This document shows, one piece after another, positions 6,352 through 64,000 of a stretch of 64,000 nt of DNA. The stretch comes from Patescibacteria group bacterium. GTDB taxonomy: Bacteria > Patescibacteriota > Minisyncoccia > Phycocordibacterales > UBA9973. Every line of letters starts with the position of its first letter. The first letter of the stretch is position 1. The stretch covers positions 6,896 to 70,895 of the forward strand of contig JAZJXT010000001.1 in the NCBI GenBank assembly GCA_040390725.1, read 5' to 3'. Below the pieces are notes generated by a model. That model made no database searches. It was not told where the DNA came from and saw nothing but the letters and a program-made list of their open reading frames with translations. A program made the translations under genes and the position numbers.

Positions 6352-6358
6352 CATCCAT

Positions 6359-48118: not shown

Positions 48119-49267
48119 ATGCACGAAGAGTTATATAAAAAAGCGTTGGAGATGCATGCGAAATATCACGGCAAGATAGAGACTGTGAGCAAAGCAAAGC
48201 TCGATTCTTTGGATACTCTTTCGTGGGCATATACTCCGGGAGTGGCGGAAGTTTGCAGGGAAATAGTTCGTGATCCTAGCCTCGCACGTGAGTATACTTT
48301 GAAAAGAAATACTGTGGCTATCGTTACTGACGGCTCAGCTGTTTTGGGCTTGGGGAATCTTGGCGCTCTTGCATCAATACCGGTGATGGAAGGCAAGGCT
48401 GCTATTTTTAAAGAATTCGCCGGCGTGGACGCATTTCCAATTTGCTTGGATACGCAAGACATAGAAGAAATTATAAAAGCTGTAAAACAAATTGCTCCTG
48501 TTTTCGGCGGGATAAATTTAGAAGATATTTCCGCGCCGAGGTGTTTTGAAATTGAAGAAAGATTGAGGAAGGAATTAAATATTCCCGTAATGCATGATGA
48601 CCAGTGGGGTGCGGCGACTGTCGCCCTCGCGGGGATGATAAATTCTTTAAAACTTTCCGGACTGGAAAAAGAAAATGCACGTGTGGTGATAAATGGCGTC
48701 GGAGCGGCGGGTGTCGCTACTGCGAGATTATTTTTCGCATATGGAGTTAAAAATATTATTTTCTGCGACAGGCATGGCATCATTCACCATGGCGAAGAAG
48801 GGCTGACAATTCAGAAAAAAGAATTATTGGAAAAAAGTTCTTGGGCGCATGAGGCAGGCACATTGGCTGATGCGGTAAAAGGCGCAAATGTTTTCATTGG
48901 CCTTTCTGTGCCGAATGTTTTGACGGGGGAGATGGTGCGCACTATGGCGGACAAGCCGATAATTTTCGCACTTGCAAACCCTACACCTGAAATAATGCCT
49001 GACGAGGCGCGTGAGGCTGGCGCATTTATAGTCGCCACCGGGAGGAGTGATTTCCCGAATCAATTAAATAATTCTCTCGTTTTCCCCGGTGCATTCAAGG
49101 GTATGCTTGAAAATAATATATCGCAATTTAAAACTGAAATGTTTTTGGATATTGCCGAAGCTTTGGCGAACTCTGTTACTGACCTATCTCCGCAGAAAAT
49201 TTTGCCTTCTATGTTTGATAAAGAAGTGGTGAAAATTGTTTCAGAAGTTGTGAAGAAATTTAAATAA
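48119..49267 (+). CDS. NAD(P)-dependent malic enzyme (small form)
   Basis: YTPGVAEVC and VTDGSAVLGLGNLG malic-enzyme motifs, plus the Rossmann GVGAAG. Confidence 0.9.
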   Translation: MHEELYKKALEMHAKYHGKIETVSKAKLDSLDTLSWAYTPGVAEVCREIVRDPSLAREYTLKRNTVAIVTDGSAVLGLGNLGALASIPVMEGKAAIFKEFAGVDAFPICLDTQDIEEIIKAVKQIAPVFGGINLEDISAPRCFEIEERLRKELNIPVMHDDQWGAATVALAGMINSLKLSGLEKENARVVINGVGAAGVATARLFFAYGVKNIIFCDRHGIIHHGEEGLTIQKKELLEKSSWAHEAGTLADAVKGANVFIGLSVPNVLTGEMVRTMADKPIIFALANPTPEIMPDEAREAGAFIVATGRSDFPNQLNNSLVFPGAFKGMLENNISQFKTEMFLDIAEALANSVTDLSPQKILPSMFDKEVVKIVSEVVKKFK

Positions 49268-49444
49268 AATGTGCTGGCGGAAGCGGTGAGAATTTCTCCC
49301 TCGACTAAATTTTTTGTCGTCACAAAAAATTTGTCTGGTCACCGACTCATGGATTTTTTCTATTGAAAAAATCACATTCCGTCGTTCTCATCTCACTCAA
49401 AAGCCAAGCAGTTGGCTTTCTCGCTTCCGCAGTTTTTCACTGCG

Positions 49445-49529
49445 TTTAAAACTGCGGAAGCGGTGAGATTCGAACTCACGGTCCGGTTAGGGACGACGGT
49501 TTAGTAAACCGTTGATTTAAGCCACTCAT
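49445..49529 (-). tRNA. type II (long variable arm) Ser-like tRNA; anticodon loop reads UUACUAA (anticodon ACU if canonical)
   Basis: Folded by hand: acceptor GGAAGCG/CGCTTCC, discriminator G, 3-bp D stem, anticodon stem ACGGT/ACCGT, 16-nt variable arm, T arm GTGAG-TTCGAAT-CTCAC. No CCA is encoded. Confidence 0.65.
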
Positions 49530-49934
49530 CCACGCTTCCAATATACAGTTGTCAGGATTCCGCGGATGAGTGGCTCTCTCGCTTTGCTCGCGGGTGAAAG
49601 CAAAGTAGTTTGCTTTCACCCCATCTCATCCACGCTTCCAATACTTAATTTTTTTCGGATTTTTAAACTTAAAAATCCGATTGCGGGACACTCGAGTTAA
49701 GTACCCACGCGTTCAACTACCGTAAGGGTATTCTAGCATATTTTATGGTGGCAAAACTAGGCACTCGGGTCGCTAGGCGGTTTTTCAAAATGAGACAAAT
49801 GAGACACTAAATGTGTTTTTTGTGTTTGTGTCTCATTTTTGTCTAGGCAAAAACTTACCCACTTAATTATTTGACTATAATATCTTTTATTTGTTATCAT
49901 TAAACTATTATAATTTTAAAAAAAGTTAATAATC

Positions 49935-50137
49935 TCCTCCCAGAGTCGATTTAGGGACCATCTTCATTAAGACCGGAGGTGCGCTATCAGGGGTCGGGGA
50001 TCCCTGCCAGGTAGGTATCATTGGGAAGCTACCATTTCATCTTACATTCAATTGATCAATCAATCCATGTAGGTTGCGATGGTAGCATTCTAGAGCTTCT
50101 TCGCAAACTGCAATTCGTAAGAGTGCAGTTTTTTTTA
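49935..50137 (+). ncRNA. Candidate structured small RNA, GC-rich for this genome, ending in a hairpin plus T8 terminator
   Basis: Stems cctcc/ggagg, caggg/ccctg, gctaccat/atggtagc; terminal ctgca...tgcag followed by tttttttt at 50108-50137. Confidence 0.25.
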
Positions 50138-50159
50138 TTACTAATTTTCTAATAAATGT

Positions 50160-51485
50160 ATGAAACATGAAAACATAAAAATTGTTGAAGTTCCAATCAA
50201 TGAACTTCGAGAGTCGGAATATAATCCTCGCCAGCATTCCAAAGAGCAGAGTGACCAGCTCAAAGAATCAATTAAAAGATTTGGTCTAGTCGATCCCATA
50301 ATATGCAATGATGCGTCAGGTCGTGAGAATGTAATTATCGGCGGACATTTCAGAGCTGAAGTGGCGAAAGAAATGGGCATGGCAACTGTGCCGGTGGTGT
50401 ATGTAAAAGTTGAAGAGTTAGAAAAAGAAAAAGAGTTAAACATTCGTCTTAATAAAAACCAAGGTGAATTTGACCTAGATCTTTTGGCTAGTTTTGATGA
50501 ATCTTTTTTGTCTGATATTGGATTCGATTCAGAAGAAATTGATGAAATTTTTTTAGAAGATGCAATCGAAGAGCAGTTTGATTTAACCAAAGAGTTAGAC
50601 AAACTAGACATTAAAAGTATTTCGGTAAAGAAAGGAGATGTCTATGAAATTAATGGGTCGAGGTTGTGCTGTGGGGATTCAACCATTGAGGCAGACGTAC
50701 TAAGGTTAATGGGAGAAGAAAAAGCAGACATGGTATTTACTGATCCACCATATATTCTCGACTATCTTCACGGAAAAACAAGGAAAGGAAAAGCTACTGA
50801 AGGTTTTGGTTCAAAAAAGAACAGAAGGTATCTTGAAACAGAATCTCTGCCTGATAATTTTACAGATCTTTGGATGGCTAATGTTGCCAAAGTTCAGAAA
50901 CCCGATTTCTCTATTATTGTTTTTGAGAATCCAAAAAATCTTAGAATTATTTGGAATGAGTTAGAAAAATATTGGAAATACAGAAATACAATTACATGGC
51001 ATGTTCCAAACCGTGTCCAAGGATTTTCAGCAAAATATAAATTGTTTAATAAACATGATATTGCTGTGGTTGGAACTGGCGGAAATGTTGCATTAAACCT
51101 TGAGGAAGAAGATGAGTTGTTTCAAAATGAATATGAAAATGCCATTCTTGCAACGTCGGGCAAGCCACATTGGGAAGGTTATGGAAAAAATAAAAAATAT
51201 TGCCCAACTGATTTTATAGAACACATTGCCGCTGATGAAAAAAGTTCAGGTCAAGGGATTATTTTTGGAACTAAACCGTTAGAACTACTTATTCCGTACA
51301 TTAAGGTGTTAACAAAGAGAAATGACTTAATTTTGGAGCCATTTGGTGGATCCGGAAGTACTTTAATTGCAAGCATTAAAATGGGTCGAAGGTGTTTTCT
51401 GATGGAAAAATCGACTGTATATACTCAGGTTATTCTGAAACGCTGGGAGAAAGAAACTAATCAAAAAGCGATAAAAATAAAATGA
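50160..51485 (+). CDS. ParB-like nuclease domain fused to a DNA methyltransferase (N4-C/N6-A class, DPPY motif); no restriction endonuclease is evident nearby
   Basis: N-terminal IIGGHFRAEVA (ParB/Srx) motif; FTDPPYIL motif IV; C-terminal AdoMet-binding EPFGGSGST. Confidence 0.8.
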   Translation: MKHENIKIVEVPINELRESEYNPRQHSKEQSDQLKESIKRFGLVDPIICNDASGRENVIIGGHFRAEVAKEMGMATVPVVYVKVEELEKEKELNIRLNKNQGEFDLDLLASFDESFLSDIGFDSEEIDEIFLEDAIEEQFDLTKELDKLDIKSISVKKGDVYEINGSRLCCGDSTIEADVLRLMGEEKADMVFTDPPYILDYLHGKTRKGKATEGFGSKKNRRYLETESLPDNFTDLWMANVAKVQKPDFSIIVFENPKNLRIIWNELEKYWKYRNTITWHVPNRVQGFSAKYKLFNKHDIAVVGTGGNVALNLEEEDELFQNEYENAILATSGKPHWEGYGKNKKYCPTDFIEHIAADEKSSGQGIIFGTKPLELLIPYIKVLTKRNDLILEPFGGSGSTLIASIKMGRRCFLMEKSTVYTQVILKRWEKETNQKAIKIK

Positions 51486-51946
51486 GAGATATAGAAGACA
51501 AAAAGAGACTCATAGAAATACTTTCTGAGGTTCCATATATTATATATGCTTGCAAAAAAATTGGTATTGCAAGAGCCACTTTTTACCGTTGGTGCTCGGA
51601 AGATGAAGACTTTCACCAAGCTGTTTTAAAGGCTATGAAGTATAGCAGACAGGATGAATCAGAAAAGATAGAAATGAAAATGGCAAAAAGAGCCAAAGAA
51701 GGAGATTTTAATTCTGGAAAATTTTTCCTTGAACATAATGATGACAGATATAGGAAATACAAGCCAGAAAGAAATCCATATGATTTTGACCCGGTGCCTC
51801 TTTTAGAGTATTGTATTCCATACTTGGAATTTATGTTTGGACCGAATTTTGATCACAGTGCGATGCTTAAAAAAATTGAAACGATTGATATATCAGATCC
51901 AGAAGATAATCCGTCAAAGAAAAGCCTAAGATATGAAGTAAAGTAA
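51482..51946 (+). CDS. HTH protein resembling a phage terminase small subunit N-terminus
   Basis: ACKKIGIARATFYRWCSED HTH; overlaps the methyltransferase stop by 4 nt. Confidence 0.45.
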   Translation: MRDIEDKKRLIEILSEVPYIIYACKKIGIARATFYRWCSEDEDFHQAVLKAMKYSRQDESEKIEMKMAKRAKEGDFNSGKFFLEHNDDRYRKYKPERNPYDFDPVPLLEYCIPYLEFMFGPNFDHSAMLKKIETIDISDPEDNPSKKSLRYEVK

Positions 51947-51953
51947 AATATCT

Positions 51954-52646
51954 TTAATTGTTGCCAACTTTTCTAATTAGGTCAGCAATTTCGTAAGAAT
52001 CTTTAATGGCTTGCTGGTCTTTTTTAGAGAGGGTTATATCTTTTAATCCTGACCCACCAGTAAATCTGACTTTAATAATTGCGTCACCGCTTTCCGCAAT
52101 AGCTTTTATTATTCCATTATCTCTACCATTTGTATAAAGAATTTTTTCCCATACACTACCGCTTCCATTGTTCTCAAGGTTATTAGGATCAGATATTGAA
52201 ATATTTTCGGTTTCATAAACAGTGTCACCAATTTTAACTTGAACTCTAGTATGGAAAATCCAATCTTCACCAAAGTAATTACTTTCAAGGCATAAATTAC
52301 CGTCTGACCCTACTGTCACTGATAAATAATTTCTGTTATATGAGTTATCTGTTGTTTGATTTTTATGTATATACAAACCATCTTTTTCAAATTCATCATA
52401 GTCATAGTTGAAATTTCTTTTTAGGATTTCAAGTCTTTCCTTGTATGCTTTTAAAGTTGCAGGATCTAGTGGAGCAGAGTGTTGTAGAATTTTATTTTCA
52501 CTCAATGTCTGATTTCTTAGAGATATGGTTTTACGAATTATAGGTACGAGAATGAATATGAATAAAATAATTATAATTATGTAATATTTCTTTAAAAAGT
52601 TTTTCATTTTAGTTTTTTTGTTCGATACGTTTATTTTTTCGACCAA
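51954..52646 (-). CDS. hypothetical membrane-anchored protein (230 aa)
   Basis: ORF with an N-terminal transmembrane helix. Confidence 0.5.
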   Translation of the reverse strand: MVEKINVSNKKTKMKNFLKKYYIIIIILFIFILVPIIRKTISLRNQTLSENKILQHSAPLDPATLKAYKERLEILKRNFNYDYDEFEKDGLYIHKNQTTDNSYNRNYLSVTVGSDGNLCLESNYFGEDWIFHTRVQVKIGDTVYETENISISDPNNLENNGSGSVWEKILYTNGRDNGIIKAIAESGDAIIKVRFTGGSGLKDITLSKKDQQAIKDSYEIADLIRKVGNN

Positions 52647-52803
52647 GATAAACTAATACATATGCTCCTTCAATTATCATAGGCAAACCTACGAGCAATG
52701 CTTGACCCATTTCTTTGCCATTACTTTCTGTTAAAAGCGGAAGTGATTCCAAAACCCCTATAATTAATATTAAGATAGACCAGACCTGTAAAAATCTTTT
52801 CAT
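52609..52803 (-). CDS. small membrane protein (about 65 aa; the ORF-track N-terminal extension was rejected)
   Basis: MKRFLQVWSILILIIGVL transmembrane helix. The upstream part of the track ORF overlaps a hairpin-rich intergenic region. Confidence 0.35.
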   Translation of the reverse strand: MKRFLQVWSILILIIGVLESLPLLTESNGKEMGQALLVGLPMIIEGAYVLVYLGRKNKRIEQKN

Positions 52804-53132
52804 ATTTTTTCTATTGCGTTTTATTAGTAAGCCCTTGAGTAGGACGCAAAAAGCCCACCACAGGTAGAGACCGAAGTCTCTCGTATCCGTTTCCAGATAC
52901 GGCGTATGAAGCACCCCATGATGGGTTCTTTATGCTTCATACGACTTTTGACCATATCCTTTGGAAATCCAAAGGGGTTAGGTCTTCTATTAATTTGTCT
53001 AATAATTCTAGCACATTTTTAGTGCTTTTGGCATCCTAGCTTAGATCAAAGGATTTGTGTAGTCGAGTTATCAACAGTTAGTAAATACAAGTAAACTCAC
53101 TTTAATTGTAATTTTTATTATATAATTTAAAT

Positions 53133-53576
53133 ATGATAATCAGATTATTAAAAAAGAAAGATATAAAAAGCGCATCTGTTATTGCTCGATTAAATTATTC
53201 CAAAAAAGAAGAAAAGCTTGCAAAGATAGAGTTAAAAGAAATGTTTACAAAAGGACCATTTCGACCTGTATTTTATGTTGCCGAAGAACAAGGAAAAATA
53301 TTTGGCTTTGCCGGATATGCTCAAGCGTGGATGGAATACAGTGTATATCAAATCTTTTGGGTGAATGTTGCTCCCAACGAAAAAGGTAAAGGCGTAGGCA
53401 AAGCTCTTATATCAAAAGTCATTACTGAAATAAAAAAGAAGAAAAATGCAGACTTGATTTTAATCAGTGCCGACGAAAATGCAAAAAATCACGAATACTA
53501 CAAAAAGCATTTCGGATTTAAAACTTTGGATTTATTTAACAAAAAAAGATATCATTTGATGTCGCTTAAGGTTTAA
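53133..53576 (+). CDS. GNAT-family N-acetyltransferase
   Basis: FWVNVAPNEKGKGVGKALI acetyl-CoA-binding motif. Confidence 0.75.
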   Translation: MIIRLLKKKDIKSASVIARLNYSKKEEKLAKIELKEMFTKGPFRPVFYVAEEQGKIFGFAGYAQAWMEYSVYQIFWVNVAPNEKGKGVGKALISKVITEIKKKKNADLILISADENAKNHEYYKKHFGFKTLDLFNKKRYHLMSLKV

Positions 53577-53611
53577 TTACAAATACCTATTAATTATGCT
53601 ATTATCTTAAT

Positions 53612-55105
53612 ATGAAAGAATGGGCGCCACAGCTTAAATACCGAAAGGAAGACACAGAACCAAAGCCTAACTTCGGCGTGCTAGCTTCCCCGGAGGGGGG
53701 GGCAACAATAAAGAATTTGAAGGAGAAAAATGAAGCGCTGGAAGCTCTTATTAAGGAAGCTATTGTGAAACTTATACCCATACTTGAAAAACATAATCCT
53801 GATAAATTTGGTACTGGATTTATTACTAAATACTTAAGGTATAATTATAATAAGCTAGTAAAAAATCTTCCTGGGAATAAGGAAAATAAAACGGACTGGA
53901 TGCCATTTGACAGTCAGTTGCCAAAGAAATGGCAAGAAAGGTTTTATCTTCCGGAAAAAAGGTTAAAATTTTTTGCGGCTAAAATTGTTTCAATTTTAGA
54001 AAAAGAAAAGCCAGAATTTTTTACTCCGGGTTCAATAAAAAAAATGGATCCAAGTATCTATATGATATTGACACAGATGCTACCGAGGGATGAAGAAGAT
54101 AATATTGACTATAAACCCTTTGAAGAAGAATTACCGGAGGAATGGAAAAACAAATTTGAATATGGGAATATTTCTTTTCCGTATGTTGTCTTGAAATTTG
54201 TTTTATTACTTGAAAAAGAAAAACCTGAAGAGTTTAATGTGACTTATATAAGAGATTACGCACCTGACATTTATGGCATGCTAGATCGGATTTTGCCAAA
54301 AAATCAAAAAGGTGAGCCTGATTGGTTATACTTTAAAAGCCAATTGCCGGAAAAATGGCAAGAAAGGTTTACATATGAGGAAAAAAAACGTTTATCTTTC
54401 GAAGAATGTGTTTCAAAAGTAGTTGAAAAGTTAAACGAAAAAAAGCCGGAGCAATTTGGACCTATTTGGATTAAAGAAAATTGCGGGGATATTGTATATA
54501 ATGAACTGCGTAGAATTTTACCAAGAAAGGATAACCAAGATGACCAAATTGATTGGCAACCCTTTCTTGATAAGTTACCTAAGGAGTGGCTAGCAAAGTG
54601 GAAACATAAAAAAGATCCATATTACAAGCATCTAAAAGAGTTCCCGAGTAAGAAAGAATTAAGGCAGATATTATTAAAATACAAAAATTATGGAGATGCA
54701 CATGAAAATAAACTTTATGTTTTGCCTTATTATCCGAATCTTTCAAAAGATGACAGGATAATTGCCAATAAAATTGTAGGGGAAATAATAAAGTTGGCAC
54801 AGAAAGGCAGTAGTGCCGCACGAGAAATGCTCGAGTTAGACTTAAATTTTGTCTGTGAGGAATGGATACAAAAATACCCCGGATACCCTTTTGAATTGAA
54901 GCCGTGGAAGGATAAACCGGAACAGTTAAAGAAACTTATACGGGGCTGTATTTATAATTATCAGAATAAGGGATCATTCTTTTCATACTTGTTTACGGCT
55001 TTAAAAATGGGCAGACCAACTTCAATTAAAATGGTAGAATTTGATGAGGGCTACATGAAAAAATTAAATGATTCAATGATGGAAGGGTTTGAGGATCAGT
55101 TATAA
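53612..55105 (+). CDS. hypothetical protein with 3.5 tandem roughly 70-aa repeats (DWxPFxxxLPxxWxxxF...LEKEKPExF)
   Basis: The repeats are visible in the translation. A G8 homopolymer lies at 53695-53702 near the 5' end. Confidence 0.6.
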   Translation: MKEWAPQLKYRKEDTEPKPNFGVLASPEGGATIKNLKEKNEALEALIKEAIVKLIPILEKHNPDKFGTGFITKYLRYNYNKLVKNLPGNKENKTDWMPFDSQLPKKWQERFYLPEKRLKFFAAKIVSILEKEKPEFFTPGSIKKMDPSIYMILTQMLPRDEEDNIDYKPFEEELPEEWKNKFEYGNISFPYVVLKFVLLLEKEKPEEFNVTYIRDYAPDIYGMLDRILPKNQKGEPDWLYFKSQLPEKWQERFTYEEKKRLSFEECVSKVVEKLNEKKPEQFGPIWIKENCGDIVYNELRRILPRKDNQDDQIDWQPFLDKLPKEWLAKWKHKKDPYYKHLKEFPSKKELRQILLKYKNYGDAHENKLYVLPYYPNLSKDDRIIANKIVGEIIKLAQKGSSAAREMLELDLNFVCEEWIQKYPGYPFELKPWKDKPEQLKKLIRGCIYNYQNKGSFFSYLFTALKMGRPTSIKMVEFDEGYMKKLNDSMMEGFEDQL

Positions 55106-55116
55106 GATTTATTATT

Positions 55117-56208
55117 TTATTTCCCCTTAAGTTTTAAAACCAAAACCCCCGCTAAAACCCCAGCCACAGCACAAGACAAAATCGCAATAAGAATTTCGTT
55201 AGTTGTAAATACAAAATTCGGATGAACTAAATATGATGCCCCGACATAGAAAATAACAGCCGAGAGAATGCCCATTATCAAACCTTTAATAACTAAATTA
55301 AATTTTGGAATAGTTTCGACTACGATTGCCGGCAGAATGTAGGAGAAAAGGAAAAGCCAAAATGGAGGATTAAAGAATTCATTTATCATTACTCCCGGAG
55401 CAGGGTGAATGAGGGTAGCCGGACCGACGGAAGAAATGAAAGCGTAAAAGATTGTCGTTAAAAGAATTGATTCTGATTTTTTCTTTTGTTGTCCTAAATA
55501 CAGCATCACGGCAATCCAGGCAAATACTACTATTCCCGCTCCCCAGAATCCCATTACTCTGTATGCCCCCAAAGGGAAAAATGGCAAAGTAAAAATGAGA
55601 ATGTATCCTAAGAATGTCGCCCAAAGTCCGCAATCCAAAAGCCAATCAACAGTATGGTCAGAGCCGAGTTTAGCTATTTTTCTAGAAAATAAAGTCAGGG
55701 TAATAAGTGAGCCGAGGATTAAAAGATGCGGAGGCGACCAGACTACGATAGGGCTTAGTAAGTTCTCAGTGCCGAAAACAGAGTGCCAAGCTTGGTCCAA
55801 GACTCCGGTGATAGGAAAAAGCAAACTCACCCAAAAGGCATTTCTGTATATTTTATTTTTCGTTTTTCTCCAAGCTACAAATGAACATATTATGACGACA
55901 CTAAGACAAAGATACAAAGCAGTATGCGGAGGAATAAAAAATTGATCCCTGCCTATGGCCACATGCCACCAAGCATCCCACAATAATGCCGTAGCCATGC
56001 AAATGCTCATAAAGGGAATAAGTCGTGTGTAAATTTTGTTGTGCATAGGGGAATTATAGCAAGAAATGCTAGAGATTAGTAAGAGTTGAATGTACCCAAA
56101 AAAAGCTTGACAAATAGGTATTAAATGTGCTATACTTTCATTGGTCTTTGTTCGTTGAAAAATATTGATTTTTAAGAGGTGAATTGAAAAGTTGTTATAT
56201 AAAAACAT
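55117..56208 (-). CDS. hypothetical polytopic membrane protein (363 aa)
   Basis: About ten predicted transmembrane helices. Confidence 0.55.
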   Translation of the reverse strand: MFLYNNFSIHLLKINIFQRTKTNESIAHLIPICQAFFGYIQLLLISSISCYNSPMHNKIYTRLIPFMSICMATALLWDAWWHVAIGRDQFFIPPHTALYLCLSVVIICSFVAWRKTKNKIYRNAFWVSLLFPITGVLDQAWHSVFGTENLLSPIVVWSPPHLLILGSLITLTLFSRKIAKLGSDHTVDWLLDCGLWATFLGYILIFTLPFFPLGAYRVMGFWGAGIVVFAWIAVMLYLGQQKKKSESILLTTIFYAFISSVGPATLIHPAPGVMINEFFNPPFWLFLFSYILPAIVVETIPKFNLVIKGLIMGILSAVIFYVGASYLVHPNFVFTTNEILIAILSCAVAGVLAGVLVLKLKGK

Positions 56209-56211
56209 ACT

Positions 56212-56724
56212 TTGTATAATAGCTTTTCAATTTTTCTCACTATTAATCATTTATTTAAACTCAGTATTATGAACTTTTTATCTTCAATCTCGAAAGTTTC
56301 GCATTTTTCTGTAAAAAATGGCGTTGGACAAGTTTTATGCTTTGTCGCTACATTTATAGCTGGCTTTGCATTTGCAAACAATATAATGGAGAAAGAGATA
56401 GTTTCTCCAAGCGACAGATTGTTTTTCTTTCTTATTGCCATATTTGTTTTTGGAATAGGTATGATAGTAAGATACAAGGCCTATTTTTGGCCAAACAAGT
56501 TGTTGGGTGAAAATATGATTCACGGCTCTGGATTTTTTTTGGGGATTTGGTATTTAGGTACATTAATGAGTACCACTTCCTTCTCACCAGTCGAGCAGTT
56601 GGTAGAAACAATGCCCGATGATTTTCTGTGGATGATGGCAGGAATGTCATTTGCCCTTGGAGTTATTTTTCGCATTCTTGGGCGTAAACCCAAGATAGCG
56701 AAGACGTGTCTCGAAATTGGGTAA
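56212..56724 (+). CDS. hypothetical membrane protein (170 aa)
   Basis: ORF with four hydrophobic helices. Confidence 0.45.
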   Translation: MYNSFSIFLTINHLFKLSIMNFLSSISKVSHFSVKNGVGQVLCFVATFIAGFAFANNIMEKEIVSPSDRLFFFLIAIFVFGIGMIVRYKAYFWPNKLLGENMIHGSGFFLGIWYLGTLMSTTSFSPVEQLVETMPDDFLWMMAGMSFALGVIFRILGRKPKIAKTCLEIG

Positions 56725-56843
56725 CCCACTAACCTTAATAGTGGAAAAAAGAATCGATTGCACGGCTTTATGTCTGCTCTCGATTCTTTTTAATTTTGGC
56801 AGGTAAATTTATCCATACTAAGGCGAATCTATTTTGTAAAAGG

Positions 56844-57596
56844 TTATACTATTAAAAATACATCAATAGCTAAATGATCCGAAATCCTATCGGGAAGTAA
56901 TTTACAGTTTACTTTTAAATTTTGTGTTATAAATTTATTTACATAAATATGGTCAGTTTTTAATTTCACAGATATTCCTATTGACGCAAAAAAGTTTGCA
57001 ATTTTTGTTATAAAAAATGGTGTTTGTTCGGTATATCTACTGTCGAGAGTAGGACCTAATGTTTTGTTAATTCTTGAAAATTCCGGAGAAAGTATTTTTT
57101 CTTGGTTAGTAATTTCAAAAGGAAATCCAGTATTGAAGTCCCCGCCGATAACTATAGGATTATTTAAATTTTCTTCTAAAATTTTTGCTTTTATAATTTC
57201 CAACTGCTTTAATCGTTTGTGCGGTCTTAGCCCCGGGTGCAGGTGAATTGTACTTATAAATATTACCTCATTGTCTTTTGTAAATTTTCCACCAACAAAA
57301 CCCCAACCTCTGCGTGGCGAGTCAGTATTTAATATTGCAAATGACAAAAAAGTATCGTCAGTTAAAACAAATTCTTTTTTGTATAAAATACACACACCTG
57401 TATTTTCTCCTAAATTAGAATCGTAAGAGTTAAGTATTTTATAATTTTGAGAAGCGTTTTTTATTAAAACAATAATTTGTTCCGTTATCTCTTGTAAAAG
57501 TAAAAAATCATATTTTTCTTCTTTTAAAATATGAATAATAAAGTTTTCAAAATTTGGTTGGTATGCTTTTTGGCAATTGAGGGTGAAAATTTTCAT
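56844..57596 (-). CDS. endonuclease/exonuclease/phosphatase (EEP) family protein
   Basis: N-terminal LLLQE, GGDFNTG, and C-terminal SDHLAI motifs. Confidence 0.7.
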   Translation of the reverse strand: MKIFTLNCQKAYQPNFENFIIHILKEEKYDFLLLQEITEQIIVLIKNASQNYKILNSYDSNLGENTGVCILYKKEFVLTDDTFLSFAILNTDSPRRGWGFVGGKFTKDNEVIFISTIHLHPGLRPHKRLKQLEIIKAKILEENLNNPIVIGGDFNTGFPFEITNQEKILSPEFSRINKTLGPTLDSRYTEQTPFFITKIANFFASIGISVKLKTDHIYVNKFITQNLKVNCKLLPDRISDHLAIDVFLIV

Positions 57597-57599
57597 TTT

Positions 57600-58394
57600 T
57601 TAATTAGAAACTTCTTTTGAAGTAAAATACTGATAAACATAAATAAAAGCTGGCACGCCAAATAGTATCCACGATAACTCTTCTATGGGAAAACTAAGAT
57701 CTCCAATATGGACCATTCCCAAATACTGACTACCGAGAAATCCCCATTGATGTGTTGCTAACGCGGAAAGTTCTATGATAAAAAGCATCATGCTGAACGG
57801 TAAACATTGTAGCCAAAGCTTACAAAAGCGCTTAGCTGATTTAAGAAGTCCAATAATGGTGGGTGTACAGAAGAAGATAAGAACAAACCATAGATAAAAA
57901 TACGGAATTGTTAGTAATTTACTGTTTGTGTAAAGTATGAAAATTTCAACAAAAAGAACGGTGAATAAAATAATTACAAATTTATTAAATCGAGGTAGAA
58001 TTTTTATTTGCAAATTTTGTTCAGTAAAAAAGTAATTATATAAAGACACAATTAAATATACATAGACAACTGCCCATATAACTGTTTCAAACGGAATTAA
58101 ATTAAAAATTCGTCTAGGAAAAACAGATGTCTCCCACCAGGCATTATTAAACAAAGCGAGACTGTCAGTCAAAAGAACAAATGGTAAACCCGTAAGCAAT
58201 GCGAACTTTGCGGTGGATTTAAATAAACTAGGACGACGAAATGTTATGTAAATTGAGGGAACCAAAAAATAAAGACCGGTAGAAATTAAATAATTCAGTT
58301 TAAAAGTAATAGTAAAGTAAGCAATAATAGCTGTATAAATGACTACTCCAATCAGCTCAATTATTTTTTTATTAGACCTAGGTATTGGAAACAT
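57600..58394 (-). CDS. hypothetical integral membrane protein (264 aa)
   Basis: Seven or eight transmembrane helices; family uncertain. Confidence 0.5.
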   Translation of the reverse strand: MFPIPRSNKKIIELIGVVIYTAIIAYFTITFKLNYLISTGLYFLVPSIYITFRRPSLFKSTAKFALLTGLPFVLLTDSLALFNNAWWETSVFPRRIFNLIPFETVIWAVVYVYLIVSLYNYFFTEQNLQIKILPRFNKFVIILFTVLFVEIFILYTNSKLLTIPYFYLWFVLIFFCTPTIIGLLKSAKRFCKLWLQCLPFSMMLFIIELSALATHQWGFLGSQYLGMVHIGDLSFPIEELSWILFGVPAFIYVYQYFTSKEVSN

Positions 58395-58483
58395 ATTTTT
58401 ATGATAGCCTATAAAAGTAATGAATTCAAGCTATAGTCTTAGATTAGATAAAAAGATTTGTGCAGTTGAGTTACAATAGTTTT

Positions 58484-59044
58484 TTACCTGCTTAAATATC
58501 TTCTTATAATTCTTTCTTTTGATTCTTGTTGCTTTGTTTTAGTTAGCATCTTTTCCCAGTCCCAAATCTTTCCACTGGGACCAAAAGCTTTGAGATAATA
58601 TTCAAGATAAATTTTAGGATTTATAAAAATAACATCATCTATTTTTTTCCAACCCAAAGCCATTTTATAATCATAGCCAATTCTGTGACCAATTGATCCT
58701 ATCCATTGATGAGCAAGAACGTTTCTCCAGTCGTGGATTGACTTGGCAATGGTGGAAAACTTAGTATCAGCAGTATCACCATCAACAAACTTTTTAAGAA
58801 ATAACTTATATCCTTTTAAACTAGTTTTATTAAACAATCCTTCAGAAATAGTAAGTGCCACCGAATGGACACCAAGAAACAGTAAAGACGTCTGATAGTT
58901 ATCTTGTTGAGCTGTTAGGGTAATTTCATTATTAAAGAAATTTGCTATTGAGTTAAGTAGGGTTGCAATAATTTCATATGGTGGACCGTTCTGAAATCTT
59001 TCTAGGCGTTTTTCTTTTGTTTCTCCGTGGGAATTATTTTTCAT
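58484..59044 (-). CDS. HEPN-like protein (186 aa), a candidate toxin or defence component
   Basis: DWRNVLAHQ matches the HEPN Rx4-6H motif (R-N-xxx-H form). The size fits HEPN domains. Forms an operon with 59056-60666. Confidence 0.5.
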   Translation of the reverse strand: MKNNSHGETKEKRLERFQNGPPYEIIATLLNSIANFFNNEITLTAQQDNYQTSLLFLGVHSVALTISEGLFNKTSLKGYKLFLKKFVDGDTADTKFSTIAKSIHDWRNVLAHQWIGSIGHRIGYDYKMALGWKKIDDVIFINPKIYLEYYLKAFGPSGKIWDWEKMLTKTKQQESKERIIRRYLSR

Positions 59045-59055
59045 TTCATTTAAAA

Positions 59056-60666
59056 TTAAAGTAGGTTTTCTTTCTTAGGAAGAAAACGACTTTCCATCGT
59101 ATTAAGTACTTGGATGCATTTTATGAGAATATCTTCAAAAACTACCCAAAGGTCTTTACTATCTATGTCAAAGAATTTTTTAATCTTTTCATAATTACTA
59201 CCTTTTAGATGAGCAACGCTTGTCGAACGCAAAGTTTGTAGGTTTCTAAAAAATTCAATCATTTTAGGCGCAGAAAATCCATGAGCCATAGAAAAAGCTT
59301 CAAACTTATCTATGCCTTTAGGATTAACTTTACTAATGGTTAACCCTTTTTTAAGTTCTTTTTCGTTGAGTGAGTCGATCATAATTTTTGTTATTGATGC
59401 TACCTGATCATCAAACTCTTTTTGCTCATTTGTCGTCGGAACATGAAGTGATTTCATGTGATGCGTATCACCAATAGATAGCGGTTTAAATAGATACCAT
59501 CCAAATTGTTTATTCCATGCCTCTTGAAAAATTTCAAATTTCTCTTTGAAATAAAGTTCTGGATGTTCAGAGTCTGCAAAATTACCTTCAATATTTCGTG
59601 TAAAATCTGCATGACTAATTTTTCTCCTACTTGGAGTGAGGTTAAAAGCTTTCCAGTGAGTCTGTTCCTTGTATGGCAAGGATTTTAAGTCTCCCAACCA
59701 TATTACCACGTGATCCCTATGATTAATCATAGCCCTTAAGCCCCAGAAACCTTCAAATTTTATATATCCATCTTCAACAGAATATTTACCTGGATTATCA
59801 TAGTATTTTTTGAGTACCTCTCGCTTAAAAAAGACTGGTGTTAGAAAACCAGGACTGGACTGATAATCAGTATTACAACTATAATTAACTTCTTTTCCAT
59901 TTTCATCTACTCCAATTATAAATTCTTCAAACTTTTCATCAGCTCTCGTTTGCCAAATAGTTGGATTAAAGTCTTTTAGTCCTGCAATCAATTTTTTACC
60001 AAGCAACCATCCCTGAGATTTATTATCACCTAAATTAAGACTTCGAATGCATAGTGAATAGGTATAATTATCTCCCTTTTTAATTTCGTCGATTTTTTGC
60101 TGATTTAATTCCTCGAGTGTTTTGTCTAAAAATCTCATGGCTTCAAAATAAATTGCGAGATGCATTTGTTTTGCTGATAAAAACTCTTTTATAAATTTTA
60201 ATTTGATTTCTACCTTATTCTTACTAATTTGAACAACTTCGTCTTCATCTCCATAGTCGTTAGTATAAGTAAATATTTTTTTATCATCGATGATTTTTTC
60301 AAAGAGATTAAAATACAACCGAAATTCTTCTGAGACCTCAAGACAGGCTTTTTCTTTACCACTAAATGATCTCCAATATACTAATGACTCTATACCTTCA
60401 TCGGAAAAACGATAATATTCAGTTTTTGATTTCCCCGCCAGATAGTGGGTCATAAAACCTGGACGTCCTCCATCGATTCGTAAATCCCAGTCGTATTTTT
60501 CCAAAACCTCTTTTACTTTATTATCAGCTATCAGTGCAGAAAAATAGGTACCCCTATCAATGTCAACGGAATCTAAAAATTCAAAAACTGTGACCCATTC
60601 CGTTTTTCCTAGATCACCTTCAATGTTTTTTATTAAATCGGTAAATTTTAAATCTTTTGTATTCAT
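59056..60666 (-). CDS. hypothetical protein (536 aa) with a C-terminal HEPN-like Rx5H motif
   Basis: C-terminal LRSTSVAHLKG; no other recognisable motif. A 12-nt gap separates it from the downstream HEPN-like gene. Confidence 0.5.
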   Translation of the reverse strand: MNTKDLKFTDLIKNIEGDLGKTEWVTVFEFLDSVDIDRGTYFSALIADNKVKEVLEKYDWDLRIDGGRPGFMTHYLAGKSKTEYYRFSDEGIESLVYWRSFSGKEKACLEVSEEFRLYFNLFEKIIDDKKIFTYTNDYGDEDEVVQISKNKVEIKLKFIKEFLSAKQMHLAIYFEAMRFLDKTLEELNQQKIDEIKKGDNYTYSLCIRSLNLGDNKSQGWLLGKKLIAGLKDFNPTIWQTRADEKFEEFIIGVDENGKEVNYSCNTDYQSSPGFLTPVFFKREVLKKYYDNPGKYSVEDGYIKFEGFWGLRAMINHRDHVVIWLGDLKSLPYKEQTHWKAFNLTPSRRKISHADFTRNIEGNFADSEHPELYFKEKFEIFQEAWNKQFGWYLFKPLSIGDTHHMKSLHVPTTNEQKEFDDQVASITKIMIDSLNEKELKKGLTISKVNPKGIDKFEAFSMAHGFSAPKMIEFFRNLQTLRSTSVAHLKGSNYEKIKKFFDIDSKDLWVVFEDILIKCIQVLNTMESRFLPKKENLL

Positions 60667-60791
60667 TCTATATTTTTATAATAGCATTTTTTGCTAGAAA
60701 ATAAAGAGTTTTTTATGAATATTAGTTACCAACACTCTACCAACTGGGTCGCACTAGACTCCTGGAGCAAGTTGCGTCATTCATTAGGTAT

Positions 60792-62114
60792 ATGAATAAC
60801 ACAATATCAATACCAATTGGGACAATGGTAAAAGAAGTAGTCCCCGTAAGAGTAAAGTACTGTTTGTATGCAAGAAAATCAACGGAATCGGAAGAACGCC
60901 AAGTCCTATCAATCGATAGCCAAATAAAGGAAATGTTGCAGATGGCAGAAAGAGAAGGGCTTGAGATTGTAACAATGAAAAGAGAAAGTCACTCCGCCAA
61001 AGAAACAGGACAGCGACCAATCTTTAATGAAATAATAGAAGAACTAAGGCAAGAGAAATTTAACGGAATACTAACTTGGGCACCGGATAGAATAAGTAGA
61101 AATGCAGGCGACCTTGGTAAAATAGTAGATTTGATGGATTCAGGAAAACTTCATGAGATACGAACTTTTGGACAAAGATTTACAAACAGTCCAAGTGAAA
61201 AATTCTTGTTAATGATTTTAGGAAGTCAGGCAAAACTTGAAAATGACAACCGAGGAATAAATGTAAAAAGAGGATTACGCACACGAGCCGAGATGGGGCT
61301 ATGGGCAGGAATGGCACCATTGGGATATTTAAATCAAAATCGAATGGACAAGAAGTGTCAGGTAATAATTGATCCATTAAGAGGTCCGGTAATTAAAAGA
61401 ATGTTTGAAAAAGTCGCATATGAAAAGTATTCAGGAAGAAGGATATATAACTGGTTAAAATTTGAATTGAATTTTTACACAAGAGGAAATAAACCACTTA
61501 CCCTGAGTGGAATATACCGACTACTGGAAAACCCTTTTTACTACGGAGTGTTTGAAAAACCATTAAAGAGTGGAAATTGGTATCAAGGTAAACACGAACC
61601 TCTAATAACTCAAGAATTATTTGAAAAATCCAAAGCACAACTGAAGAGAGACAACATACAAAGAGAAAACAAAGAATTTGCATTTACCAAATTATTCACT
61701 TGTGGGTACTGCGGAAGTGGAATATCCGCAGAAGAAAAATGGAAACAACTTAAGAACGGAACAGATGCAAGATATATTTACTATTCTTGTAGTAGGGCAA
61801 GAGATAGGAATTGTAAAAACAAATATATACGAGAAGAAGAATTAATAACTGAATTGCTTAAAATTATAGACAAGGTAAATATTAATGAGCTTGGAATGAG
61901 GCAAAAACTCGAAGATGAAATTGCACGATTTAATATTTTTCAAAGGTCAGTATTGGGCAGTACGGATAAAATTAAAAATAATCAGGAGACGGACATACGA
62001 AATTATGCTAAATATATTCTCAAAGAAGGTTCGACGAGTGAGAAAAGAGAATTGCTTGGGAATTTGAGGAGTAGGATAGTTTATAAGGATAAGATACTTA
62101 CATTACTAAATTAA
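60792..62114 (+). CDS. large serine recombinase (resolvase/invertase catalytic domain + recombinase domain + zinc ribbon)
   Basis: YARKSTESEE...SIDSQ catalytic Ser region, and a C-terminal CGYCGS...C zinc ribbon. Confidence 0.85.
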   Translation: MNNTISIPIGTMVKEVVPVRVKYCLYARKSTESEERQVLSIDSQIKEMLQMAEREGLEIVTMKRESHSAKETGQRPIFNEIIEELRQEKFNGILTWAPDRISRNAGDLGKIVDLMDSGKLHEIRTFGQRFTNSPSEKFLLMILGSQAKLENDNRGINVKRGLRTRAEMGLWAGMAPLGYLNQNRMDKKCQVIIDPLRGPVIKRMFEKVAYEKYSGRRIYNWLKFELNFYTRGNKPLTLSGIYRLLENPFYYGVFEKPLKSGNWYQGKHEPLITQELFEKSKAQLKRDNIQRENKEFAFTKLFTCGYCGSGISAEEKWKQLKNGTDARYIYYSCSRARDRNCKNKYIREEELITELLKIIDKVNINELGMRQKLEDEIARFNIFQRSVLGSTDKIKNNQETDIRNYAKYILKEGSTSEKRELLGNLRSRIVYKDKILTLLN

Positions 62115-63352: not shown

Positions 63353-63422
63353 TAACCTAATTTAGCATGATTTATAGAAAATGTTTATAAAATATTCTTT
63401 AACAGTATGGTATATTTAATCA

Positions 63423-64000
63423 ATGAAATATATATTTATTGGTTTTCTTGGGTGGCCAGAACCCGCAATGAAACAAGACGAAAGAATCTATGAAATAGAT
63501 AATGGCTTTGAATGTTGGAATTTGACTAAATTTTCTGCTACAGAATTTGTAGAAGCTATAAAAATTAAGATACCACCTTTTAATGATAATATTCTCAGAA
63601 ATTATATAAATAATGGAAAAGATTTTTATGGAATAAGTGAGGAGCAGTACGGTAAATGTCTTTGGGGTATTTTAGTTCCAGACCCAGATGAATTTTTTGT
63701 TGTGTATAAAGAAGTACTTTCTATTTTAAATCTTTTTTCAACAAAATATATGCATCCTGCTTTTTTTATTACAAACACAGGGATAAATAAAGGGGAAGAG
63801 TTTAATCAAAATTATGTTTTACCGAACGATTATCAAGGCTACGAATATTTTAAAACTTTAAGTTTTGTTTCTTTCTTTAAGACCATGGCTGATCAAATGA
63901 AGTACTTTGCTTGGGTTAGAAATAGAGTTACAAGTTGGGGAAAAGAAGACTGGCGACTATTTATGGCTTGTGGTTTTTATGAAGGGTTAGAAGAATACGA
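63423..64000 (+). CDS. hypothetical protein, 5' portion (runs off the window end)
   Basis: Open frame from ATG 63423 to the window end with no stop (hand-translated MKYIFIGFLGWPEP...). Absent from the ORF track because it is truncated. Confidence 0.4.
   Translation, partial: MKYIFIGFLGWPEPAMKQDERIYEIDNGFECWNLTKFSATEFVEAIKIKIPPFNDNILRNYINNGKDFYGISEEQYGKCLWGILVPDPDEFFVVYKEVLSILNLFSTKYMHPAFFITNTGINKGEEFNQNYVLPNDYQGYEYFKTLSFVSFFKTMADQMKYFAWVRNRVTSWGKEDWRLFMACGFYEGLEEY

Follow-up and report, generated by a model that had tools for sequence, protein, structure and literature searches.

Textbook wobble rules and published surveys treat an unmodified adenosine at position 34 (A34) as nearly absent from nature, so that most studies of its decoding have used engineered tRNAs (PMC11066159). 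In Escherichia coli, such a tRNA with anticodon ACU read AGU, the reading of AGC and AGA being below detection (PMC11066159). The closest described tRNAs are: (i) tRNA-Arg(ACG), the standard bacterial A34 tRNA and the substrate of TadA, which in bacteria requires UACG/YUACGAA (PMC11472039); (ii) tRNA-Leu(AAG) of Streptococcus, Oenococcus and other Lactobacillales, an extra A34 gene that is conserved in its clade, tied to codon usage and deaminated to I34 by an adapted TadA (PMC11472039, PMC13249217); and (iii) tRNA-Thr(AGU) of Mycoplasma which, as summarised in PMC11066159, has an unmodified A34 and is encoded by a reduced genome from which the inosine system has reportedly been lost. The tRNA-Ser(ACU) gene found in the window (i.e. 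the whole stretch of 64,000 nucleotides that was analysed, taken from a Patescibacteria assembly) shares traits with each of them. Indeed, its anticodon loop UUACUAA differs from the YUACGAA of tRNA-Arg(ACG) at position 36 only, it is, like tRNA-Leu(AAG), an extra A34 gene kept within a clade, and it would be, like the Mycoplasma tRNA, a natural bacterial tRNA that retains its wobble adenosine. However, it has the marks of serine identity (class II, G73, long variable arm) and U36 in place of G36; the Mycoplasma tRNA serves, according to the same summary, a four-codon family box in which misreading is harmless, whereas ACU belongs to AGN, a box split between Ser and Arg, and is found together with a G34 isoacceptor; and, unlike for tRNA-Leu(AAG), inosine would be harmful for ACU, and the TadA substrate tRNA-Arg(ACG) is reported missing from the group. 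The initial annotation had noted that A34 is unusual for a bacterium, and the literature agrees.

With regard to the sequences around the gene, the closest systems are the 178-bp repeats of E. coli tyrT/tyrV with the rtT RNA (rttR), and the tRNA-targeted integrative elements (islands and prophages with att sites). As in the former, the units found in Patescibacteria follow a tRNA in the same orientation, can be tandem (locus L006) and end in tRNA 3'-terminal nucleotides, the tyrV-proximal unit overlapping the last 19 nt of its tRNA. Unlike the former, they add an H1 hairpin and a closing stem formed with an inverted tRNA-end copy, they may also occur at the 5' end of the gene, and they are present or absent between relatives. 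Neither the RtT covariance model nor the rtT sequence gave a match, with Rfam E-values up to 10 for the window and up to 1 and 0.1 for the loci. As in integrative elements, a 15-20-bp direct repeat runs from the T loop to the 3' end, the insert lies between an intact tRNA and a displaced 3' fragment, and an empty site occurs in a relative. Unlike these elements, the inserts are only 116-260 bp long across the module copies, are non-coding, have a conserved fold and have no linked integrase. In brief, the locus probably combines a functional tRNA-Ser(ACU) with an unmodified A34, fragments of this tRNA that act as the closing stems of modules, and a separate island of ~15 kb (Table 1).

Table 1. 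Features of the tRNA-Ser(ACU) locus (positions in the window)
Feature	Position	Strand	Basis
tRNA-Ser(ACU) gene, 86 nt	49454-49539	minus	ARAGORN; Rfam tRNA, 55 bits; cloverleaf
Anticodon ACU in loop UUACUAA	49503-49505	minus	A34 is the complement of T49505
3' module, 177 bp (162 bp plus one 15-bp repeat)	49277-49453	minus	empty site in L035; model R1; fold
Displaced copy of tRNA 3' end in direct orientation (T-stem and acceptor-stem 3' strands followed by GC)	49277-49291	minus	chance expectation 0.04
Conserved core of type B module	49303-49384	minus	near column-for-column alignment with L010 and L018 copies
Hairpin H1, 9 bp, loop CUGC, hallmark of the module family	49399-49420	minus	fold
Inverted copy of tRNA 3' end and trailer	49422-49436	minus	15 nt, 100%; folds
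5' unit, 100 nt	49544-49643	minus	repeats; fold
Inverted copy of tRNA 5' region (3' part of acceptor, D arm)	49561-49575	plus	15 nt, 93%
Hairpin H1', 13 bp, loop CUAC	49592-49621	minus	inverted repeat; fold
Displaced copy, in direct orientation, of tRNA nt 1-15 and the preceding 4 nt	49625-49643	minus	chance expectation 0.00
Accessory island	49644-64000, continuing to ~64576 outside the window		GC content; genes; L032
Large serine recombinase (no other recombinase seen in the island)	60792-62114	plus	Pfam Resolvase, Recombinase, Zn_ribbon_recom

The tRNA-Ser(ACU) gene and its conservation

A serine-type class II tRNA with A34 had been proposed from the sequence, and this proposal was borne out by ARAGORN, which called a tRNA-Ser with anticodon (act) on the minus strand and not GCU, GGA or a pseudogene, by the Rfam tRNA model (RF00005; gathering score 29) and by the minus-strand fold. 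On this strand, GGAAGCG/CGCTTCC forms the acceptor stem and ACGGT/ACCGT the anticodon stem of 5 bp; the variable arm has 16 nt and includes a covarying 4-bp stem, the T arm is GTGAG-TTCGAAT-CTCAC and the discriminator is G73. The long variable arm, G73 and 3-bp D stem are those of class II bacterial tRNA-Ser. CCA is not encoded, and the gene ends in ...GC-A. The A34 base call was reproduced in a separate Logan assembly of run SRR26324628, whose contig L031 corresponds to positions 49491-52869 of the window with 100% identity. A scan of 49100-50200 revealed a single promoter-like site, on the plus strand and pointing away from the tRNA, and no terminator-like site. The gene call, fold and base call indicate that this is a real gene, neither an error nor a pseudogene, and a predicted functional serine isoacceptor kept by Patescibacteria, the uncultured, ultra-small bacteria of the Candidate Phyla Radiation (CPR), beside the usual tRNA-Ser(GCU). 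The primary transcript, comprising the tRNA and the flanking inverted copies, has a predicted minimum free energy (MFE) of -120.5 kcal/mol (z = -9.8), and the long hairpins formed with the inverted copies could trap both ends of the tRNA and impair its maturation in this genome.

Genomes were scanned with a pattern in which the D arm and the remainder of the loop (TTNCTAA) were fixed and position 34 was free, so that the scan samples only this type of tRNA and is silent on Patescibacteria devoid of the gene. It retrieved 28 loci, 17 with ACT and the other 11 all with GCT. A34 was present in 17/17 scan loci from Patescibacteria-type assemblies, labelled Paceibacterota, Paceibacteria, Nomurabacteria, Saccharibacteria, Patescibacteria group, unclassified (three) and Flavobacteriaceae (one, L020); the tRNAs of the latter are identical to those of the Saccharibacteria locus L013. 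The GCT loci include eight labelled Bacteroidota, two labelled 'uncultured bacterium' or 'Bifidobacterium sp.' and one unlabelled contig. A separate tRNA-Ser(GCT) lies within ~1.2 kb in 16 of the 17 ACT loci. Furthermore, two ACU orthologues found through synteny, independently of the anticodon pattern (L033, L035), have the same A34. In the alignment of 13 distinct orthologues, the cloverleaf is 98.4% paired with nine compensatory pairs, values reached by 0/500 shuffles, and the anticodon loop, with U33 and A37, has the canonical form and does not vary. These comparisons show that at least two Patescibacteria classes conserve tRNA-Ser(ACU), with compensatory changes and without variation at A34; judging from the alignments, the ACU anticodon is a conserved trait across Patescibacteria and no local oddity. 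A literature search retrieved no paper on Ser(ACU) or A34 in CPR, Patescibacteria or Saccharibacteria, a mention in two Rafels-Ybern surveys being possible.

The partner tRNA-Ser(GCU) was not found inside the window. It lies on the minus strand just beyond the window end, ~15 kb from tRNA-Ser(ACU): the sequence is prolonged to 64616 by Logan contig L032, the last part of which is the 3' half of this gene. A metagenome scan with the window-specific acceptor and D arm retrieved nothing but an unrelated tRNA-Ser(GCU) that belongs to a cluster of three tRNAs (L030). The tRNA pair is not kept beside the malic-enzyme gene in the genomes of the homologues P0008, P0017 and P0019, so wider synteny sampling was uninformative.

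Stem-closed modules at the ends of serine tRNA genes

The tRNA is ringed by pieces of itself, as initially annotated. All four repeats exist, one of which had gone unseen, and the sub-coordinates first given for the others were off by ~4-20 nt. Indeed (i) the 19-nt upstream copy CTCATCCACGCTTCCAATA, covering tRNA nt 1-15 and 4 upstream nt, is present, 100 nt from 49525-49543 instead of 90 nt away at 49606-49624; (ii) the opposite-strand partial copy CGCGGATGAGTGGCT is present, 15 nt long and 93% complementary to 49520-49534, although not at 49552-49566; (iii) the inverted repeat of the 3' acceptor end is present with its partner at 49448-49462 (15 nt, 100% complementary), although not at 49418-49431; and (iv) the fourth fragment, GCGGAAGCGGTGAGA, is a 15-nt direct copy of the tRNA 3' end lying 10 nt past the malic-enzyme stop codon. 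The 19-mer and the 15-mer occur exactly twice each in the window, against the shuffle expectations given in Table 1, and chance is no explanation for these repeats.

In each module, an inverted tRNA-end copy lies beside the gene, a conserved hairpin (H1) and a core follow, and a displaced direct copy lies at the far side. The 3' module, located between tRNA-Ser(ACU) and the malic-enzyme gene, has a predicted stem-closed fold (MFE -62.2 kcal/mol, z = -8.1) in which the copy at 49277-49291 supplies the 3' strands of helices P2 and P1. Positions 49422-49430 (GCGGAAGCG) form the 5' strand of P1 and have, in the predicted folds, two possible partners, the 3' end of the tRNA itself and the displaced copy. 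The order of the type B core is GAACGACGGA, H2 (49349-49377), GAGTCGGTGACCAGAC, H3 (49303-49335) and AGTCGAGGG. The module is bounded by a 15-bp direct repeat (49277-49291 and 49454-49468); in the alignment with the relative L035 it is missing at the same site, and its displaced copy sits where L035 has its intact tRNA 3' end. It aligns as a homolog with modules after tRNA-Ser(GCU) in L010 and L018. The module family is defined by the covariance model R1 (acceptor-strand P1, H1 hairpin, T-stem-strand P2 and terminal tRNA 3'-end copy), and the 3' module has these elements: R1 matched 49276-49430 with 44.2 bits (E=2e-7), with P1, H1 and P2 aligned. These comparisons show a 177-bp insertion with a 15-bp duplication relative to the close relative L035, and a family of modules located after Ser tRNAs in other Patescibacteria.

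Outside the window, the family was found in five other genomes, namely L006 (two copies), L018 (two copies), L008, L010 and L020, and every copy has the orientation of the Ser tRNA that it directly follows. The H1 stem covaries in type A copies (7/8 pairs), and the consensus fold of three sequences has compensatory changes in 9/38 pairs. The distribution is patchy (6 of ~20 genomes), with presence and absence between near-identical tRNA contexts; the window and L035, and L020 and L013, are pairs of occupied and empty sites. No integrase is encoded in the 162-bp non-coding insert, and no recombinase or transposase could be linked to the modules. Scans of viral contigs with the ACU tRNA pattern and four module motifs, as well as a distant BLAST search against phages, were empty and therefore lend no support to a phage attP origin. 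Rfam searches of the window (E up to 10) and of five loci (E up to 1 and 0.1) returned tRNAs only. A reading of the module as a small ORF was rejected, since a 1-nt indel separates the copies.

The 5' unit mirrors the 3' module, its closing stem being made of the displaced tRNA 5'-end copy and its complement (MFE -43 kcal/mol, z = -6.0). It shares GCAAACU(A/G)CUUUGC and GCGAGCAAAGCGAGAG with the L018 module; R1 matched it weakly, with only 13 bits (E=2.9), so that it is a candidate member of the family. A second, degenerate tRNA within the 5' unit was considered and rejected, as no model supports it.

Taken together, the tRNA fragments appear to be the closing stems of two small structured modules, one per gene end. 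The modules would have arisen by insertion at the T-loop/3' end of the gene, and the 5' unit by insertion at its 5' end; since the inserting DNA would bring a new tRNA-end copy, the tRNA would remain intact. In a broader, tentative reading, AGU would be decoded group-wide by a tRNA with unmodified A34, and both Ser tRNA genes would be the targets of undescribed stem-closed elements of 120-260 nt. The tRNA part would represent a naturally occurring A34 tRNA of a split codon box, unreported in the literature searched, which would have become possible after the loss of the inosine system. The elements would rebuild the tRNA end at insertion and carry a folded mimic of that end, and could act either as attachment sites in the form of folded single-stranded DNA or as RNAs that resemble tRNA. 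The modules mark the Ser tRNA pair as a hot spot of rearrangement, where DNA has been inserted and inverted, the GCU gene gutted and an island captured, and constitute a structured non-coding family missing from Rfam and phage collections. The inverted copy matches the acceptor variant A4:U69, which is private to this lineage; this is unexpected for a recently imported element and counts against the insertion view.

It is also conceivable, although rather unlikely, that the modules are RNA genes, which would be transcribed together with the tRNA and released by processing as stable structured RNAs whose end resembles the acceptor/T stem of a tRNA. This would parallel the rtT RNA from the repeats after E. 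coli tyrT/tyrV, with rttR inside the 178-bp units of tyrV, and is compatible with an insertional origin. The location of all copies just 3' of a Ser tRNA in one orientation, the covariation of the helices, a sense-strand fold that equals or exceeds the antisense one in strength in 10/10 units and, in L006, a hairpin and T-run of its own after each unit are in favor of RNA genes. However, the L010 copy is without the 5' acceptor strand, so that a tRNA-like closing stem is not universal, a terminator-like hairpin lies between the tRNA and the first unit in L006, and the patchy distribution described above also argues against them.

The accessory island

The locus borders an accessory region, as predicted from the sequence: the GC content falls from 0.42 to 0.31-0.36, and the region encodes a ParB-DNA methyltransferase, a small-terminase-like protein and the large serine recombinase, together with a LOOT RNA, a GNAT protein and many ORFs without family match. 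The phage-like island of the initial annotation corresponds to the interval between tRNA-Ser(ACU) and tRNA-Ser(GCU), which in the syntenic relative L033 are separated by merely 172 nt.

The tRNA fragments could in principle be attachment-site remnants left by the integration of this 15-kb island: tRNA genes are classic integration sites, the distal 5' copy is at the island edge, and the island carries a large serine recombinase. Such an origin is nevertheless improbable. Indeed, the tRNA lies between the 3' module and the island, only 100 nt separate the two 5' copies, and the same modules occur without the island in L010, L018 and L008. Neither tRNA end is copied at the far end of the island: no direct repeat of the tRNA 3' end was found at this boundary, nor any copy of the tRNA-Ser(GCU) 3' end in the window. 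No significant inverted repeat links the two ends of the island, and the 7-mer AAGTACC that they have in common is not above chance. Furthermore, large serine recombinases exchange strands at a 2-bp core and are not known to produce duplications of 15-19 bp.

Decoding of AGU and the wobble adenosine

AGU is the commonest AGN serine codon. The core genes contain 198 AGT, 69 AGC, 82 AGA and 51 AGG codons, i.e. an AGU:AGC ratio of ~3:1, and the genes for EF-Tu and five ribosomal proteins contain nine AGT, three AGC and 26 AGA codons. AGA represents 24% of the Arg codons in core genes and 26/85 in the highly expressed genes. Under the preferred reading, A34 would be left as an unmodified adenosine that reads the frequent AGU by Watson-Crick pairing, and AGC would be covered by tRNA-Ser(GCU). 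CPR bacteria are reported to be without tRNA-Arg(ACG) and to use GCG instead (PMC8629427); an unmodified A34 would be affordable because this tRNA is reported missing, there being therefore presumably no working TadA deaminase. A clade-wide conserved tRNA-Ser(ACU) beside tRNA-Ser(GCU) would be a natural test case for A34, and could show what A34 reads in a two-codon box, how misreading of AGA is avoided and how a tRNA set is reshaped once the inosine system is lost. The ACU gene also has a bearing on how Patescibacteria assemblies are annotated and their genetic code is inferred; in such assemblies it risks dismissal as an error.

Alternatively, A34 could be deaminated to inosine, the tRNA then reading AGU, AGC and partly AGA, like eukaryotic I34 tRNAs and the tRNA-Leu(IAG) of Streptococcus. 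The loop differs from the Arg loop at a single position, and in some bacteria TadA has come to accept a second A34 tRNA as substrate (PMC11472039, PMC13249217). However, both the UACG motif and the UAMG motif of Streptococcus need G36 (PMC11472039), and the loop UUACUAA fails the TadA substrate motif, with U at this position. Given the 3:1 excess of AGU over AGC and the frequency of AGA (Arg), inosine at position 34 would be harmful: AGN is a split box in which ICU would put Ser at AGA, and, AGA being abundant in highly expressed genes, I34 would misread a common Arg codon. Since tRNA-Arg(ACG), the reason for keeping TadA, is also reported missing in CPR, deamination appears quite improbable.

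A non-ribosomal role, in which charged tRNA-Ser(ACU) would serve as aminoacyl donor, e.g. for cell-wall or lipid modification, is very improbable. Dedicated non-ribosomal isoacceptors are known in Gram-positive bacteria, and ACU is redundant on paper because GCU can read AGU by wobble, but the anticodon loop is invariant and canonical, the T loop is a standard TTCGAAT, AGU is the leading AGN serine codon, and the neighbourhood gives no hint of a transferase. Finally, that the gene is a broken tRNA-Ser(GCU), through a G34-to-A mutation, an assembly error or decay into a pseudogene, is scarcely credible and refuted as far as sequence data reach: A34 outside tRNA-Arg is rare in bacteria and the gene is wrapped in repeats next to an island, but the same A34 occurs in the 17 scan genomes and the two synteny genomes, the base is identical in a separate assembly, the stems covary, the ACU gene differs from the adjacent GCU gene in four parts (D arm, anticodon stem, variable arm and T stem), and a true GCU gene lies nearby.

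The tRNA-Ser(ACU) gene and its conservation

The initial annotation had described, from the sequence, a serine-type class II tRNA with an ACU anticodon surrounded by fragments of itself, and both parts of this description were upheld. Indeed, ARAGORN calls two tRNAs in the window, one of which is a tRNA-Ser with the anticodon (act), and this gene scores 55 bits against the Rfam tRNA model (gathering score 29) and folds on the minus strand as a standard class II tRNA (see table). Every repeat that had been listed around the gene is present, at positions differing by about 4-20 nt from those first proposed, and one further repeat, a second copy of the tRNA 3' end, had been overlooked. The number of chance matches expected from shuffles is 0.00 and 0.04 for the two direct repeats. 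Three Logan contigs of run SRR26324628 are 100% identical to the window, and one of them covers the anticodon.

Features of the window and parts of the modules flanking the tRNA-Ser(ACU) gene (window coordinates)
Feature	Position	Strand	Detail
tRNA-Ser(ACU) gene	49454-49539	-	
Acceptor stem		-	GGAAGCG/CGCTTCC
D stem		-	3 bp
Anticodon stem		-	ACGGT/ACCGT
Anticodon loop		-	UUACUAA
Variable arm		-	16 nt
T arm		-	GTGAG-TTCGAAT-CTCAC
3' end		-	G73; CCA not encoded
Direct repeat, 19 nt	49525-49543 = 49625-49643		100 nt apart
Inverted repeat, tRNA 5' side	49520-49534 complementary to 49561-49575		
Inverted repeat, tRNA 3' side	49422-49436 complementary to 49448-49462		15 nt, perfect
tRNA 3' end GCGGAAGCGGTGAGA, second copy	49277-49291		missed in the initial annotation
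3' module	49277-49453		
5' unit	49544-49643		
Module part 1			trailer
Module part 2			5' acceptor strand, complement of tRNA 3' end; absent in L010
Module part 3			hairpin H1, loop usually CUGC
Module part 4			T stem, 5' strand
Module part 5			inner hairpins
Module part 6			tRNA copy, T loop to 3' end
tRNA-Ile (anticodon UAU)	19374-19448	-	69 bits against the Rfam tRNA model
ORF of 3121 aa	19629-28994	+	
LOOT RNA (RF03000)	52866-52984	-	89 bits; gathering score 46.4

The structure of the window tRNA is ordinary and its anticodon is unusual, and this anticodon is a conserved lineage trait. Each GTDB species was represented by a single genome in a scan with the pattern GTGGATGAGTGGCTTAAATCANNNNNTTNCTAA, in which position 34 was left free, and 28 loci were obtained; since the D arm is fixed in this pattern, the locus counts are not a prevalence figure for all Patescibacteria. 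A Ser(ACT) gene is present in 17 of these loci, whose record titles give Paceibacterota, Paceibacteria, Nomurabacteria, Saccharibacteria, Patescibacteria group or no taxon, plus one labelled Flavobacteriaceae whose tRNAs do not differ from those found at a Saccharibacteria locus. In 16 of the 17, a separate tRNA-Ser(GCT), usually divergent, is located no more than about 1.2 kb away. The matching tRNA of the remaining 11 loci is Ser(GCT), and eight of these are Bacteroidota by title. Two further ACU orthologues, in the syntenic relatives L033 and L035, were reached by synteny and not by the tRNA pattern. In an alignment of 14 ACU genes (13 distinct), the cloverleaf is 98.4% paired, compensatory change occurs at nine pairs in four of the five helices, and the loop UUACUAA is invariant; the observed cloverleaf values were reached in none of 500 shuffles, and the covariation signal disappears once the 3' partners of the pairs are shifted by 1-3 columns. 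The differences between the ACU and GCU genes are spread over the whole sequence, which indicates that the ACU gene is an old paralogue rather than a recent mutant. No description of a bacterial tRNA-Ser(ACU) was found in a literature search whose coverage of relevant surveys was incomplete. The ACU tRNAs of L008 (4301-4388) and L026 (2904-2991) end in ...CACATCCTCC, so that two pairs at the foot of the acceptor stem are mismatched, a pattern that would be compatible with an imported, non-matching copy having replaced the tRNA 3' end.

Codon usage and decoding

Core genes use AGU about three times as often as AGC (198 versus 69), and EF-Tu plus the ribosomal proteins contain 9 AGU and 3 AGC. 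Arginine is commonly encoded by AGA, with 82 occurrences in core genes and 26 in the highly expressed set. If position 34 of tRNA-Ser(ACU) were inosine, AGA would be decoded as serine, so that A34 should stay unmodified. Three findings from the literature are consistent with this. Bacterial TadA requires UACG, or UAMG in Streptococcus, with G36 needed in both motifs (PMC11472039), whereas the window tRNA has U at position 36. Furthermore, tRNA-Arg(ACG) is apparently missing from CPR bacteria, GCG being used instead (PMC8629427). In E. coli, an engineered tRNA with the ACU anticodon decoded AGU, and its reading of AGC and AGA was below the detection limit (PMC11066159). A division of labour is likely, in which AGU would be read by the ACU tRNA and AGC by the GCU tRNA.

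A tRNA-Ile with the anticodon UAU (tat) is encoded in the window and in L019 (3745-3818), and ATA makes up 33% of the Ile codons of the core genes, which suggests that AUA is decoded by a U34 tRNA rather than by the lysidine route. Stop codons are TAA (15), TAG (4) and TGA (0) in 19 core genes of the window, and TAA (11) and TGA (1) in 12 island ORFs; the scarcity of TGA may be due to chance at 37% GC.

Modules built on the tRNA ends

Alignment of the window with L035 reveals a 177-bp insertion in the window, bounded by a 15-bp repeat, and the displaced copy of the tRNA 3' end sits exactly where L035 has its intact tRNA 3' end. The insert, here called the 3' module, is homologous over its length to segments following tRNA-Ser(GCU) in L010 and L018, with which it shares a conserved core (GAACGACGGAGTRT, hairpin H2, ACGAGTCGGTGMCCAGAC, hairpin H3, AGTCGAGGGAGAAATTC). 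Modules of a related type are found downstream of the ACU gene in L018 and, as two tandem copies, in L006, and downstream of the GCU gene in L008; L020 has a third type after its GCU gene. The tRNAs of L013 are identical to those of L020, the module is absent and the downstream flank can still be aligned, so that L013 and L020 are a second empty-site pair. All copies follow a common plan of six parts in fixed order (see table).

The RNAalifold consensus fold of three type A copies comprises helices P1 (9 bp), H1 (8 bp), P2 (10 bp), H2 and H3, with compensatory change in 9 of 38 pairs overall and in 7 of 8 in H1. A covariance model built from these copies recovers the 3' module of the window, which is of type B, at 44.2 bits (E=2e-7); its fold has -62.2 kcal/mol (z = -8.1). 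The 5' unit mirrors the 3' module and is based on the 5' end of the tRNA; its fold has -43 kcal/mol (z = -6.0), and it shares two motifs with the L018 module. It had no significant match to this covariance model. Comparable 5'-end duplications are present at the ACU gene of L006 and the GCU gene of L033.

An origin of the modules by insertion is favoured, because empty sites exist in relatives and the distribution is patchy. Three features suggest that the modules act as single strands with the orientation of the tRNA: their helices covary, the sense fold equals or exceeds the antisense fold in 10 of 10 units, and every unit of L006 has a hairpin plus T-run of its own behind it. A reading of the modules as RNA genes, which would be compatible with an origin by insertion, has the patchy distribution against it. 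The closest known layout is that of the 178-bp repeats distal to E. coli tyrV, the last of which shares 19 nt with tRNA-Tyr and which encode rtT RNA. The modules of the window and of five loci had no Rfam match, either to the rtT RNA family or to any other, no recombinase was linked to them in the window and the module-bearing loci examined, and no copy was found in the viral and phage collections searched. The inverted copy in the window bears the private acceptor variant A4:U69 of the lineage. Such agreement with the tRNA, which extends to the displaced copies, implies that the sequences were templated locally, underwent gene conversion or have long co-evolved. Were the whole region transcribed as one RNA, the predicted long hairpins could trap both tRNA ends.

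Other motifs recur in the 3' flanks of Ser tRNAs, namely (A)GTATCGG..GAC..AAGTACCTAAAT in the window extension (about 64530-64576), L002, L003, L012 and L020, and GATAGCACGAGATGCTTAGTT in L005, L008, L017 and L019; both may represent the termini of further element families. The former is found at the edge of the island here and also in L012, about 3.3 kb from a gene for a large serine recombinase.

The island and the partner tRNA

The window encodes EF-Tu, ribosomal proteins, ProBA, FtsH, type IV pilus proteins and RecG, and a single ORF of 3121 aa directly follows the tRNA-Ile gene. The Logan contig L032 carries the window on to 64616 and breaks off within a minus-strand tRNA-Ser(GCU), whose 3' half, ...CCCCTCGACGGTTCGAATCCGTCCGTCTCCGCC, it contains as the reverse complement. 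The locus order is malic enzyme, 3' module, tRNA-Ser(ACU), 5' unit, an island of ~15 kb and tRNA-Ser(GCU), which bears out the accessory region initially placed at the tRNA. The island encodes a ParB-methyltransferase, a small-terminase-like protein, a LOOT RNA, a GNAT protein, a large serine recombinase and many ORFs without a family match; attachment sites were sought in the window plus the L032 extension and none could be defined. The LOOT RNA match is full-length and lies between an unknown ORF and the GNAT gene, and the Logan contig L031 stops at 52869, 4 bases inside its lower (3') end.

The island is absent from both syntenic relatives. L033, whose malic enzyme is 84% identical, has the two tRNAs 172 nt apart with neither island nor module, and 7 nt separate the malic-enzyme stop from the ACU gene in L035. 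What is left of the GCU gene in L035 (4012-4100) is a pair of 5' fragments (32 nt, 84% alike and 39 nt apart) joined to the 3' end AATCCGTCCGGCTCCGCC, and ARAGORN does not call it; if the genome has no other GCU copy, the ACU tRNA would be its sole reader of AGY codons. The tRNA pair is flipped relative to the malic-enzyme gene between L033 (9191-9542) and L035 (3802-4100), and a 24-nt inverted repeat (83% complementary), made up of the 3' ends of the two divergent genes, could mediate such flips. In L018, a 350-aa ORF with a LAGLIDADG-like domain (5938-6990) lies between the ACU and GCU genes, both of which bear modules. Finally, the metagenome contig L030 (Ga0114959_10152533) has tRNA genes for Arg(UCG), Glu(UUC) and Ser(GCU) in a tight cluster (582-1072), whose Ser tRNA has exactly the acceptor strand and D arm of the window's ACU tRNA.
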